From a virus: a stretch of DNA of 10,722 bases. The DNA lies in the IMG/VR virus record IMGVR_UViG_3300032053_011359; one strand, given 5' to 3'. The notes beneath the pieces are model-generated. The model was not told where the DNA came from. It made no database searches and worked only from the letters and a program-made list of their open reading frames with translations. Positions 3,211-6,043 of the stretch are shown piece by piece. The translations under genes were made by a program, and so were the position numbers. The first letter of the stretch is position 1. Every line of letters begins with the position of its first letter.

Positions 3211-3239
3211 ACCCTCCCTGACGCTGGGGAGGTTTTTTT
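3211..3239 (+). terminator. Rho-independent terminator on the + strand, serving the small + gene. It abuts the stop codon of the convergent 353-aa gene.
   Basis: CCTCCC (3213-3218) pairs with GGGAGG (3227-3232) around the 8-nt loop tgacgctg. Seven Ts follow immediately at 3233-3239. On the minus strand the run is an A-tract upstream of the stem, so the element is orientation-specific for +. Confidence 0.6.
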
Positions 3240-4299
3240 AGCTCGGCGCTGTTGGCTGCTTCATCAGGTGCGACAGCGACGTCCCCGGGGGCGGCTTGCC
3301 CTTCGGCTTCAAGACTGTAGCGAGGACCAGCTTGTTGTCCTTGCCTACGGTCTTGAAGGCAGCAACCGCCGCGGTGTTACCGCTGGCGTCCTTCATCGGG
3401 AGGTAATAGCGCCCAGGGGACACGTCCAGCTTGATCGCCTGTGACCGAAGCTGTGCTAGCACGTCCGGAGGGAAGTCCGCGTTGATGCGCTCCTTCAAGC
3501 GGTCATCTGCGTGGTCCGCCATCTTCGGGGCGTCGTAGTCTATGAGCCGCGGATCGACTTGAGGGTGATGCTGTTTGGGCGCCGTGAGCCCTTGCAGTGC
3601 CATGTTGGTGAGCATGCTGGCGCCCATACCCCAGGGACCGCCAATGCCTCCGCCAAGCGCATCGGAGACCCCGCCGATCATTCCTTGGCGAAGCTTGTCA
3701 CCCTTCGGGGCCATCGCCAGGTTTAGGACCAGGCTTGAGAGACCTTGGGCCGTACCCGTCGCGGCCCGCGTGGGTAGCGGGGGTTGGGCGTCGGCGCCCT
3801 TATAGAACTGCTCGAGTGTCTTCTTCGGGCGAGGCGCATTGAATGCGCTGAGCGCTGCCTGAGAACCTTGGTCATACGCTTTGAGTTGGTGGAACAACGG
3901 AATCGGTCGTTCAGAGAACGTCGCCGCTCGGGCGAGCGTACCCTGGTTAGCGGCTAGTTGCTCCTGAGGAAGCTGCGCCATCTGCGCTTGGCCCTTCGGT
4001 GAGCTGAGGTGAGCTGTTGCGCGATCAACCCCATAACCAACGACGCCGCGCTGAATGGGCGCTGGCGCTGCTCTAAGAAGTCTCGCAGCTACCCGTCCAG
4101 CTTGTTCCTTAAACGTTGGCTGTGGCGCCGCCCCGCGAAACGGCCCGAGCGCCTCGATGGCATGCTTCTCCACGTGCTTGGGAAGCGACTTCTTGTTCTT
4201 CGTCGCGTGCTCCCACTCGTGCACCGTCGCCTTAGAGATCTCTCCGCGCGCCGCCTTGGCGTGGAACAGCCTACGCTGAGCCTCGCTTTTGAATGGCAT
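3238..4299 (-). CDS. Hypothetical 353-aa Gly/Ala/Gln-rich protein. It is the third gene of the Gly-rich paralog operon. It carries an N-terminal KSEAQRRLFHAKAARGEI-type motif, a glycine-zipper-like hydrophobic segment, and a more ordinary C-terminal domain.
   Basis: Long ORF with ATG at 4299, 5 nt after the TAA of the upstream gene. It contains LFHQLKAYDQGSQAALSAF and LEQFYKGADAQ modules, which are shared with the two upstream genes. It also contains GMIGGVSDALGGGIGGPWGMGASMLTNMALQGL. Every + strand ORF over this span reads as antisense junk. Confidence 0.7.
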   Translation of the reverse strand: MPFKSEAQRRLFHAKAARGEISKATVHEWEHATKNKKSLPKHVEKHAIEALGPFRGAAPQPTFKEQAGRVAARLLRAAPAPIQRGVVGYGVDRATAHLSSPKGQAQMAQLPQEQLAANQGTLARAATFSERPIPLFHQLKAYDQGSQAALSAFNAPRPKKTLEQFYKGADAQPPLPTRAATGTAQGLSSLVLNLAMAPKGDKLRQGMIGGVSDALGGGIGGPWGMGASMLTNMALQGLTAPKQHHPQVDPRLIDYDAPKMADHADDRLKERINADFPPDVLAQLRSQAIKLDVSPGRYYLPMKDASGNTAAVAAFKTVGKDNKLVLATVLKPKGKPPPGTSLSHLMKQPTAPS

Positions 4300-4304
4300 C
4301 GCGA

Positions 4305-5576
4305 TTACCGGAAGTACGTAGCGAGTGCGTCATCGGCACCCGCTTGGTAGATCATTGAGCTTTTCTTGACGCGGACCTGAGGCTGGGCGCGTGCTTTGAC
4401 CTCAGCAGGTTCTTTACGCGGCGCCTTCCCCCCTTTACCTCCAATGGACGCTTCAATCGTCTGCGCTTTCTGCTTCAAGCTCATCGGAGGTTTCGGTTCT
4501 GAGCTGCGGAGCTTGCCCTCAACTCCAGGGGACACCGAAGGTTCAGGGGCCGAGGGCTCACCCGGAGAACCCTTCGCCCACTCGACGGCCTTACGCCCCT
4601 TCTCTACGACTTTCTTGGCGGCTCCTCCGACTTGACCCGCCACCTGCTTCCCCTTCTCGACGACTTTTCCGGCCCCAGCCATCACCGGCTCAGCGACGCC
4701 GCGGTACATCTGTCCCGCGTTTGTGTCAGCGCCCATCAGGTTCTTGTGGCCCTCTACTGCTTTTGTCCCTAGGACGGCCGCTGTCCCCAGGCCTCCAAGG
4801 ATCTTCTTCTTGTTGTCGTACAGCAGCTTGGCGAGATCCTGCGCATGCCCTACGACCGGGTGTGGCGGCATCGCTACAGGGTCCACGCCCATACCCTGGC
4901 GTAGATCGTTCGCTGCCCCGCGGATGCTCCCTCCGACGCCCTTCTGGTAGGCGTTGACGAGCCCGCCTCCCATGAGCTTCCCGCGAGTGTTCATCAGGGT
5001 GTGGTGCAGCCCGCCTGCGAGCGCAGCGCCACCCCCGAGCATCAACGCTGTGTTGAGAGCGCTCGAGCCGTCGTCCCGATTGTCGTGCCCGTACTGGCCG
5101 TAGTACTCCGCTCCAGGGGGCATGCGCCCGTACGGGTCACCGTACGCCAGCTTGAACTGTGCCACGGAGGCAACCTTCGCGGCAGGGGGCCGCGGCATCT
5201 TGATCTGGTTCATACCCATTTGTTTCCTGCCTTGGTTAGCAATGTGTCTGATGTCTGATCCGATACCGCGCTGGTAGGCTTGTGCGATGGGAGTCTTCTT
5301 GTCCCCCATCAGCATGCCATGCGCTGCGTGCATGGCGAGCATACCGCCGCTGGCGAGAGCGACGTTCTTCAGCGTGTCCGCTGTGTCGTCGCTCATCGAG
5401 TGGCCTGCAGCCGAAAGTAGCGCCGTCGGAATTGCCACAGCCGCCGCAGGGAGTATTGCATTTTGGACGCTACTGACCGCCCGCTGCTGTGTCTTGCGAT
5501 CGAGTCCGCCCCACAGACCGGGGGGACGACTCCACGGCCACGCGAGCTTGAACTGTTCCGCCGTCTTGTTTTTCAT
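4305..5576 (-). CDS. Hypothetical 423-aa Gly/Met/Ala-rich protein with an internal tandem duplication of about 110 aa. It is the middle gene of the Gly-rich operon.
   Basis: ATG at 5576 overlaps the upstream stop as ATGA. An SD-like GGGGGAG lies 4 nt upstream. Repeat copy 1 runs EQFKLAWPWSRPPGLWGG to AYQRGIGSDIRHIANQGRKQMGM. Repeat copy 2 runs AQFKLAYGDPYGRMPPGAEYYG to AYQKGVGGSIRGAANDLRQGMGV. It contains Gly-zipper-like stretches (LMLGGGAALAGG, ILGGLGTAAVLG) and a Lys-rich C-terminal region. Confidence 0.75.
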   Translation of the reverse strand: MKNKTAEQFKLAWPWSRPPGLWGGLDRKTQQRAVSSVQNAILPAAAVAIPTALLSAAGHSMSDDTADTLKNVALASGGMLAMHAAHGMLMGDKKTPIAQAYQRGIGSDIRHIANQGRKQMGMNQIKMPRPPAAKVASVAQFKLAYGDPYGRMPPGAEYYGQYGHDNRDDGSSALNTALMLGGGAALAGGLHHTLMNTRGKLMGGGLVNAYQKGVGGSIRGAANDLRQGMGVDPVAMPPHPVVGHAQDLAKLLYDNKKKILGGLGTAAVLGTKAVEGHKNLMGADTNAGQMYRGVAEPVMAGAGKVVEKGKQVAGQVGGAAKKVVEKGRKAVEWAKGSPGEPSAPEPSVSPGVEGKLRSSEPKPPMSLKQKAQTIEASIGGKGGKAPRKEPAEVKARAQPQVRVKKSSMIYQAGADDALATYFR

Positions 5577-6043
5577 GCGGCTCCCCCGGGGAGGCCATGC
5601 TGTTCCCCCACATGTCCTGGCATTGGCCCGACGGCGGGACCTTTGGCTCCGCGATTGTAGTTCGTGATCCCGGTGGGGGCAGGCTTACTTTTCGAGAGGC
5701 GATCCATGCCTTCATCCACAGCGGCGCCAGCAAACAGCCCAGCCCCGCCCGGGATCGCCGCTGTCCCCGCGGCTCCGAGAGCTCTAGCTGCTCCCGTTTG
5801 AAAGTTTTCACCGCTTGCGATGCTGCCAATGGCTGACCCGCCAGCGGCTAGCGCCATTCCTGGGAGAGTCCCTACAACGGGCACAACGCCAGCAGCTCTC
5901 CCGAGCCACTTCATGGCATTCCCACCCCATTTGGCGGCGCGCCCCGCTAGCGCGCCCCAATTGACAGCTTCCTTCGTCAGCCCGTAGGCCCCAAGAGCGG
6001 CGTACTCGCCGTGGTCGTACGCCGCCTTGGTGAGGTCAAACAT
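5573..6043 (-). CDS. Hypothetical 156-aa Gly/Ala-rich protein with glycine-zipper motifs. It is the first gene of the Gly-rich operon and appears to have a leaderless start.
   Basis: ATG at 6043 has no SD, but the -10-like TATACT ends 6 nt upstream (TATACTGCCTGCATG). The N-terminal MFDLTKAAYDHGEYAALGAY module is paralogous to segments in the 353- and 423-aa proteins. GMALAAGGSAIGSIASG and AAGTAAIPGGAGLFAGAAV are GxxxG runs. Confidence 0.7.
   Translation of the reverse strand: MFDLTKAAYDHGEYAALGAYGLTKEAVNWGALAGRAAKWGGNAMKWLGRAAGVVPVVGTLPGMALAAGGSAIGSIASGENFQTGAARALGAAGTAAIPGGAGLFAGAAVDEGMDRLSKSKPAPTGITNYNRGAKGPAVGPMPGHVGEQHGLPGGAA

Follow-up and report, generated by a model that had tools for sequence, protein, structure and literature searches.

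A conserved phage gene cassette whose three Gly/Ala-rich products carry a short, portable peptide tag

The DNA analyzed here is a stretch of 10,722 nucleotides (nt) from IMG/VR virus record IMGVR_UViG_3300032053_011359; this whole stretch is referred to as the window. Our analysis focuses on three consecutive minus-strand open reading frames (ORFs), P1, P2 and P3, which encode proteins of 156, 423 and 353 amino acids (aa), and on a peptide of about 16 residues, the tag, that all three proteins have in common. A first-pass annotation, made from the sequence alone, had described the trio as translationally coupled paralogs at the end of a phage-like operon. The gene structure it reported stands: the ORFs are found at 5573-6043 (P1), 4305-5576 (P2) and 3238-4299 (P3), the P1/P2 junction reads GC-ATGA-AA, with the P1 stop overlapping the P2 start, and the P2/P3 junction reads TAA-tcgcg-ATG, i.e. 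a gap of 5 nt. The products are indeed rich in glycine and alanine (A 22% and G 21% in P1). No sequence matches were obtained for P1, P2 or P3 in Pfam, PHROGs, NCBIfam or PDB, in keeping with the earlier remark that the family was not recognizable. Because a terminator-like hairpin comes after P3, this gene closes its transcription unit, and the operon end had been read correctly.

Architecture of the trio and its common tag

The features of the three proteins were delineated on the basis of the ORFs, alignments, pattern matches, a hidden Markov model (HMM) of the tag and AlphaFold2 (AF2) models, whose confidence is given as the predicted local distance difference test (pLDDT).

5573..6043 (-): P1, 156 aa; N-terminal tag, Gly/Ala-rich 'glycine-zipper' region and Pro/Gly tail (…LAPKP…MPG…LPG); ORF
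5981..6028 (-): tag copy in P1, aa 6-21, KAAYDHGEYAALGAYG; regular expression and tag HMM; N-terminal in all P1 orthologs
4305..5576 (-): P2, 423 aa; two Gly/Met/His-rich repeats, helical middle, hypervariable Lys/Pro linker and C-terminal tag; ORF
5184..5408 (-): P2 repeat unit 1, aa 57-131, variable; self-alignment
4857..5093 (-): P2 repeat unit 2, aa 162-240, conserved core; invariant alignment columns
4308..4364 (-): tag copy in P2, aa 405-423, at the extreme C-terminus, KSSMIYQAGADDALATYFR; regular expression and HMM
3238..4299 (-): P3, 353 aa; mosaic of N-module, lineage-specific insert, tag, Gly-zipper helices and alpha/beta C-domain; ORF and alignment
4168..4299 (-): P3 N-module, aa 1-44, MPFKSEAQRRLFHAKAARGEISKATVHEWEHATKNKKSLPKHV; two helices, obligately N-terminal
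3892..4167 (-): in-frame insertion of ~92 aa in P3 (aa 45-136), starting with a degenerate tag, KHAIEALGPF
3838..3891 (-): canonical tag copy in P3, aa 137-154, HQLKAYDQGSQAALSAFN; regular expression and HMM
3583..3777 (-): P3 Gly-zipper helical hairpin, aa 175-239, homologous to the P1 body
3253..3525 (-): P3 C-domain, aa 259-349, ADHADDRLKERI…GRYYLP…AAFKTVG…LVLATVLKP…TSLSH; alpha-alpha-beta-beta-beta(-beta), pLDDT ~90
3213..3232: terminator-like hairpin with an 8-bp stem, 6 nt beyond the P3 stop

Over their whole lengths, the three proteins do not behave as the paralogs they had been taken for. BLASTP among them returned nothing significant, and Smith-Waterman scores of the three pairs do not exceed those of shuffled sequences (z = -0.06, 1.4 and -0.2). 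Alignment of family profiles with hhalign, for which the P1 alignment comprised six orthologs, relates P1 to the middle of P3 (E=6e-6, probability 85%, 105 columns), and the aligned region spans the tag, the Gly-zipper region and '…APKP'. When P2 is compared with the others in the same way, only the 14-16-residue tag aligns (E=0.24 and 0.008). Based on these profile alignments, P1 and the middle of P3 are probably paralogs, and P2 is a different protein. As a description, the proposed lineage-specific amplification is wrong; the trio consists of three distinct architectures with a portable 16-residue tag, and the cassette is kept across a clade of phages.

The consensus of the tag is KKAY[DE]xGAxAALAxF[GS]K (~16 residues). 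Its strict pattern, Y..G...[AVTD][LF]..[FY], occurs exactly once in each of P1, P2 and P3, as compared with ~0.001 occurrences per protein in shuffled sequences. The module shared by the three proteins that had been proposed at first is thus correct and beyond chance for the copies in P1 and P3, but its P2 instances and a second P3 instance were misassigned. Two candidates in P2, EQFKLAWPW and AQFKLAYGDPYG, were rejected, their FKLA segments being the starts of P2's own repeat unit; LEQFYKGADAQ in P3 was likewise rejected and is no copy of the module. The true copy in P2, overlooked at first, is formed by its last 15 residues, IYQAGADDALATYFR.

The tag is retained at the same position, again in one copy per protein, in the orthologs of six related loci (L001, L002, L004, L007, L012 and L013), and the six-frame ORFs of these 10-21 kb loci contain almost no tag match outside the tagged cassette proteins. 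At the C-terminus of P2, the last 19 residues are near-invariant in 11/11 family members, while the ~80 alignment columns ahead of them form an indel-rich, hypervariable Lys/Pro linker. Across 235 collected proteins, we counted 78 tag copies where 6.75 are expected. Their placement is far from even: 28 copies are C-terminal, 15 are N-terminal, 26 directly follow the N-module and nine lie elsewhere, so that 69 of the 78 are terminal or directly after the N-module. A search of the relatives' flanks with the tag HMM added three more conserved tagged proteins (MHPLEQHYAGGSDYALASFGLEK…, MLNELAYAQGVDDGMAKFA… and …AYRSGIDAARHHFG…), all of them Gly/Ala/Pro-rich, of low complexity and encoded within 10 kb in the relatives; the locus L013 even encodes six consecutive tagged products. 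No match of the tag HMM was observed in the helicase, PNKP, endonuclease VII, response regulator and vault-like proteins.

Other lineages possess tag versions of their own. The helix AAFFDELEKIA is common to four consecutive proteins in L016 (9679-11601), GFWEGFEKRG/AFWAGFVKKA is common to two proteins in L017 (9766-10282), and in the window's clade AY..G…AL..F is found in six or more proteins. The versions differ between lineages, with one version per genome, as would be predicted if these peptides recognized one another or a shared partner evolving along with them. We therefore presume that the tag may serve as a docking handle for separate polypeptides. Some N-module proteins end instead in poly-basic tails.

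The internal duplication of P2 that had been described earlier was confirmed: aa 57-131 and aa 162-240 reach a Smith-Waterman score of 107 versus 30 +/- 5 in shuffles (z=14.6), and both copies finish in AYQ(R/K)G(I/V)G.(S/D)IR..AN..R..MG. Repeat unit 1 is missing from the short family members P0010, P0011 and P0003. Repeat unit 2 contains the invariant motifs GGLHH(T/G/A)LM..RG, whose His-His pair is present in 11/11 members, and NAYQKG.GG.IR; it also includes NAYQKGVGGSIRG, a degenerate tag with a weak tag-HMM score. The Met/His patches that had been compared to metal-binding or membrane-active motifs are hence conserved (GGLHH.LM is invariant), but they could not be connected with any family of metal-binding proteins or toxins. 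Clustering at 90% leaves P2 with just 11 relatives, each of metagenomic origin, and its AF2 model contains no confident fold (pLDDT 41). In some P2 orthologs, an N-terminal CxC…CPxC segment resembles a zinc ribbon; the P2 of the window is without it.

The AF2 model of P3 has a mean pLDDT of 73, and an exhaustive HMMER search with the P3 profile identified 784 proteins related to its modules. The N-module starts at residue 5 or earlier in 165 of 171 proteins; it is found fused to InPase, DUF5661, GNAT plus LigD_N, a holin-like transmembrane (TM) segment or Gly-rich tails, and together with the tag it also forms stand-alone proteins of 57-68 aa. In many relatives, the P3 gene is split into a 61-aa protein consisting of N-module and tag and a ~200-aa protein consisting of tag, Gly-zipper and C-domain. 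The tag of P3 orthologs directly follows the N-module. The insertion at aa 45-136 is unique to the window and amounts to an in-frame replacement of ~370 nt: at this position L007 contains just 48 nt, between flanks that are 92% identical, and none of the collected sequences contains a homolog of the insert. The region homologous to P1 (aa 175-239) is modeled as three Gly-zipper helices (pLDDT 83-89). In the C-domain, AF2 predicts helices at 263-271 and 280-289, strands at 297-303, 309-318 and 323-330, and a two-residue bridge at 340-341; H263, R267, R271, T317, T328, S341 and H344 are invariant. This domain may be a nucleic-acid-directed or RNase module.

The GxxxG stretches noticed in all three proteins are present, but they are only marginally hydrophobic. 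For the Gly/Ala segments of the trio, the hydropathy value KD19 does not exceed 1.78 and the predicted apparent free energy (dGapp) amounts to +4 to +6 kcal/mol, whereas a real TM helix, encoded in the neighboring ORF 2399-2998, has a KD of 2.42 and a dGapp of -1.9. Such marginal hydrophobicity fits soluble or flexible proteins that meet membranes or channels conditionally and argues against ordinary membrane proteins. According to one alternative, the trio acts in the membrane of the infected cell, in lysis, superinfection exclusion or envelope remodeling, with glycine-zipper helices that form pores or pack in the inner membrane. We consider this very improbable, since the Gly/Ala segments fall short of the hydrophobicity that Sec-type TM helices require.

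Genomic neighborhood and distribution

Together with the gene directly upstream of P1, here called X, the trio forms a cassette (X-P1-P2-P3) that is conserved in a clade of uncultivated phages of ~187-190 kb; two of the longest contigs are IMG/VR viral genomes. Searches of 50,697 phage records and 185,579 species genomes yielded nothing that resembles the cassette. The genes and signals around the trio are listed below.

9980-10336 (-): receiver-only response regulator; Pfam 7e-20
8283..9749 (-): SNF2-family helicase of polyvalent-protein type; Pfam SNF2-rel_dom and Helicase_C, phrog_62 positions 692-1099 of 1881
7827-8249 (-): endonuclease VII gene; Pfam 4e-24
6729..7229 (-): HAD/PNKP-type phosphatase between helicase and cassette; Pfam HAD_PNKP, phrog_415, conserved synteny
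6079..6543 (-): gene X; beta-rich domain of ~70 aa, poly-Pro linker (PPPPPPPP…) and basic tail (FFGKGRNR)
2919-3068 (+): DUF7417 gene; Pfam 8e-17
2399-2998 (-): 199-aa ORF; one genuine TM helix (aa 87-105), then a coiled-coil-like region
2171-2204: terminator-like hairpin, 13-bp stem and T-run, right after the stop of the MVP-like gene
1..2165 (+): gene resembling the major vault protein (MVP), truncated by the contig end and convergent with the cassette; MVP_shoulder 9e-20, Vault_3 4e-8; no stop upstream

The conserved order of the block is response regulator, SNF2 helicase, small ORFs, HAD/PNKP phosphatase, X, P1, P2 and P3. In L001, L002, L004 and L007, DUF7417 and the convergent MVP/vault-like gene come next, and in L001 and L002 the stretch after P3 also contains a DNA ligase gene. 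Gene X, for which no family match was obtained, lies directly upstream of P1 in L001, L002, L007 and L013; in L001 and L013, X and the product of a small upstream ORF (6488-6715 in the window) form one fused protein. The 35-nt spacer between X and P1 contains a perfect 7-bp hairpin, GGGGAGA-cgt-TCTCCCC (6056-6072, minus strand), 12 nt upstream of the P1 start, which may be a translational or RNA-stability element. An endonuclease VII gene between helicase and PNKP is found only in the window, the same place being occupied by small ORFs in L001, L002, L007 and L013; because of this uniqueness, a mobile insertion is suggested. The receiver-only response regulator, which is unusual for a phage, heads the block in every related locus that reaches that far (L001, L002, L007/L008, L013/L014). 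Since the 5' half of ORF 2399-2998 overlaps the DUF7417 gene on the opposite strand, its real start is probably internal, near MSADPLG….

The MVP-like gene is conserved nearby in every clade locus that reaches that far, at a distance from P3 of 2.4-5 kb in L001, L002, L004 and L007 and of ~1.1 kb in the window, and full-length copies in those four loci encode 893-899 aa. Homologs with 39% identity are present in huge-phage genomes of 462-735 kb (LR756500/501/503). Phage MVPs have so far been reported in only one preprint, on gut phages.

This conserved neighbor makes it attractive to interpret the tag as a cargo-loading peptide that docks tagged proteins inside the shell of the MVP-like protein, all the more because the tags resemble encapsulation peptides in being terminal helices set off by flexible linkers. 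The interpretation is weakened by the distribution of the two systems: the N-module/tag system occurs in phages without an MVP gene within 10 kb (L009, L016, L017), and MVP homologs occur in huge phages without P2 and P3. The MVP-like gene is, moreover, convergent and belongs to a separate transcription unit, the hairpins 2171-2204 and 3213-3232 delimiting the convergent ends of the two units, and loading of vaults by short peptides has no precedent. Taken together, a cargo-loading function of the tag appears improbable. The fuller version of the same idea, in which P1-P3 and at least three other proteins would be recruited by their tags into or onto a vault-type shell in the infected bacterium, is a long shot.

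Fusion partners, links to the virion and a proposed role

The modules of P3 recur in much larger proteins. The C-domain is joined to a LigD phosphoesterase (LigD_N), an ATP-dependent DNA ligase and an SNF2 helicase in P0120 (1232 aa), to SNF2 in P0214 and P0127, and to InPase in P0150; the N-module is combined with InPase, GNAT and LigD_N in P0132 (1463 aa) and with InPase in P0033. Furthermore, P0110 and P0113 are fused with DUF5661, eight members of the P3 family contain a SWIM zinc finger, and P0097 has a weak match to an R2K ATP-grasp. These partner types overlap with the genes that flank the trio, i.e. the SNF2 helicase (8283-9749), the phosphatase (6729-7229) and the ligase of L001 and L002, and the fusions suggest that the SNF2 helicase may be a functional partner of the trio. 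Giant proteins composed of such domains are described as phage 'polyvalent proteins' by Iyer et al. 2017 (J Bacteriol; PMC5512222), who also note solo or less-fused versions.

Three loci encode stand-alone peptidases (L013 13239-13763, L021 4918-5379 and L020 3503-3985; two Peptidase_C39 and one Peptidase_Mx). Their genes are convergent and come right after giant fused forms of the cassette (1426, 838 and 1041 aa), whereas none is present beside the split versions. This pattern suggests that the giant forms are proteolytically processed, and it echoes the processing proposed for polyvalent proteins.

A link to phage particles is provided by the helicase. Among cultured phages, its closest homolog is encoded by Salmonella phage Arash: Gp217 aligns with 95% of the window's helicase at 39.6% identity. 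In purified Arash particles, Gp217 was identified with 38 unique peptides and 1148 spectra, as compared with 1333 spectra for the major capsid protein and 1210 for the RNA polymerase beta' subunit, and the downstream products Gp218-225.1 are all virion proteins (PMC10585845). In Pseudanabaena phage PA-SR01, the helicase homolog lies in the head module. Small N-module proteins, some of which carry the tag-like helices mentioned above, are encoded in tail/baseplate modules in L016 and L017, and in L009 such N-module proteins follow a giant RNA polymerase near the large terminase (TerL).

Our favored interpretation, to which we assign a probability of roughly 0.4, is that the trio represents a split set of polyvalent proteins that is carried in the virion and ejected along with the DNA, with the tag as docking handle. 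According to this model, the whole block that begins with the SNF2 helicase, continues over PNKP and X and ends with P1-P3 would be a disaggregated polyvalent-protein system whose products are packaged, enter the host with the DNA and act together at the very start of infection. In place of covalent linkage, the tag would recruit the separate polypeptides to a common partner or hub, or to each other. In P1, P2 and P3, the Gly-zipper segments with their marginal hydrophobicity would constitute the flexible or membrane-active part that passes the tail and engages the envelope, and the P3 C-domain would work with the helicase as a nucleic-acid-directed module. The functions suggested in the first-pass annotation are accordingly narrowed down: the evidence favors structural or ejection proteins, while lysis or toxin-like and condensate-forming proteins found no specific support.

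Several observations weigh against packaging and ejection. With 116 proteins listed, the Arash proteome may, as its authors concede, include abundant enzymes that were carried over (PMC10585845). P1 and P2 have no homology to the Arash virion proteins. In the clade of the window, the cassette is not located beside recognizable structural genes, its neighbors being genes of DNA metabolism, and neither a MuF/portal fusion nor a site among virion genes was found there.

In a purely intracellular alternative, nothing is packaged and the tagged low-complexity proteins are non-virion scaffolds or adaptors that gather SNF2 helicase, PNKP, ligase and related enzymes into a repair, anti-restriction or replication complex, with the tag as an oligomerization 'sticker'. 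The DNA-metabolism genes around the cassette in every clade locus, the direct fusion of the P3 C-domain to helicase, ligase and phosphoesterase, the long low-complexity linkers with poor predicted fold and the possible carry-over in the Arash data would all agree with it. It is harder to reconcile with the N-module proteins in tail/baseplate modules of other phage lineages, with InPase-type fusions, which are considered virion-packaged, and with an Arash helicase homolog that is as abundant in particles as the capsid protein. We therefore regard an intracellular scaffold as rather unlikely.

If the favored model of co-ejection is true, phages may exchange the covalent linkage of polyvalent proteins for a short docking tag, specific to each genome, by which many small proteins, disordered for the most part, are brought into one assembly with their enzyme partners. 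The MPFKS.AQ N-terminal module and the tag versions would then provide a signature with which metagenomes can be searched for proteins that are delivered or assembled together; about 780 relatives there are now without annotation. Three domain families and one short linear motif are newly defined here. A portable peptide of this kind might load foreign proteins into phage particles, or into vault-like shells if the vault idea holds; in the latter case, a cargo system would be defined for the first time in a vault outside the eukaryotes, and phages would be seen to build a compartment of a new type. An MVP/vault homolog is, furthermore, placed in a second phage group (~188 kb) and in huge phages of 462-735 kb, which broadens the question of the role of viral vault proteins.

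Comparison with known systems

Large phages package many proteins that enter the cell along with the DNA. The internal proteins of phage T4 are directed to the capsid by an N-terminal targeting sequence, and phiKZ has inner-body proteins. The T4 sequence is a strictly N-terminal peptide of ~10 aa, which the prohead protease removes at (L/I)-x-E. For SPN3US, proteins that are packaged with the genome and ejected have been reported (PMC10052503). The likeness to these systems consists in several small, often disordered proteins with a short terminal peptide and one destination. The tag of the trio differs from their peptides: its sequence is unrelated, its position varies between N-terminal, C-terminal and internal, it is not flanked by a conserved protease site, the P1 alignment containing no conserved L/I-x-E downstream of it, and packaging is, in our case, a proposal.

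The podovirus ejection proteins (P22 gp7/gp20/gp16 and T7 gp14/gp15/gp16) offer another parallel, namely three consecutive genes for Ala/Gly-rich, weakly hydrophobic and poorly structured proteins. They are thought to switch from a soluble to a membrane-associated state. Sequence and profile comparisons revealed no similarity to the trio, which also differs in its DNA-metabolism context and size pattern. Glycine-zipper membrane helices (SlyB/Rick_17kDa_Anti, Tim17/OEP16) differ as well, in that the trio has no HMM match to them (no Pfam match at E<=0.1) and its hydrophobicity is too low for constitutive insertion.

With the targeting peptides of encapsulins and microcompartments and with the vault INT domain, the trio has in common a short terminal helix with a flexible linker on several proteins and a shell-type (MVP-like) neighbor. 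There is no sequence relation, and the tag system also exists without an MVP neighbor. Vault cargo uses a domain of ~160 aa, not a 16-residue helix; nothing like such an interaction domain was found in our analysis, while MVP-like genes do co-occur in the clade.

The C-domain of P3 recalls the PBECR/BECR RNases. PMC5512222 gives the PBECR signature as a histidine within helix 1 combined with Ser/Thr on the late strands, and the invariant H263 in helix 1 and T317, T328 and S341 of the C-domain strands correspond to it; both domains also occupy the same kind of position in polyvalent architectures. The BECR fold has an N-terminal helix and four to five strands, as compared with two helices and three clear strands in the AF2 model. 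Because neither any PBECR HMM nor a structure search recognizes the C-domain, the RNase reading stays a lead.

The closest resemblance is to the polyvalent proteins themselves. The P3 N-module and C-domain are joined to their hallmark domains (InPase, SNF2, GNAT, LigD-type phosphoesterase and ligase, with DUF5661 as a further shared domain), the helicase of the window matches the central part of a giant-helicase PHROG profile with 1881 positions, and peptidase genes lie beside the giant versions. The N-module, Gly-zipper module, C-domain and tag are absent from Pfam, including its LPD/PBECR families, and from PHROGs, NCBIfam and PDB; the literature, searched for the signature strings of modules and tag, likewise contained nothing. 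If polyvalent proteins are defined by 2-15 distinct conflict-related domains per polypeptide, the giant relatives P0099 (1426 aa), P0120 and P0132 belong to them, whereas P3 contains three to four modules, none of them a recognized catalytic domain, and P1 and P2 are single-module proteins. A MuF/portal domain is absent here, and separate small proteins share a peptide tag instead of being parts of one polypeptide. Co-delivered phage proteins and polyvalent domains are already known; what would be new is a split set that is held together by a genome-specific terminal tag.

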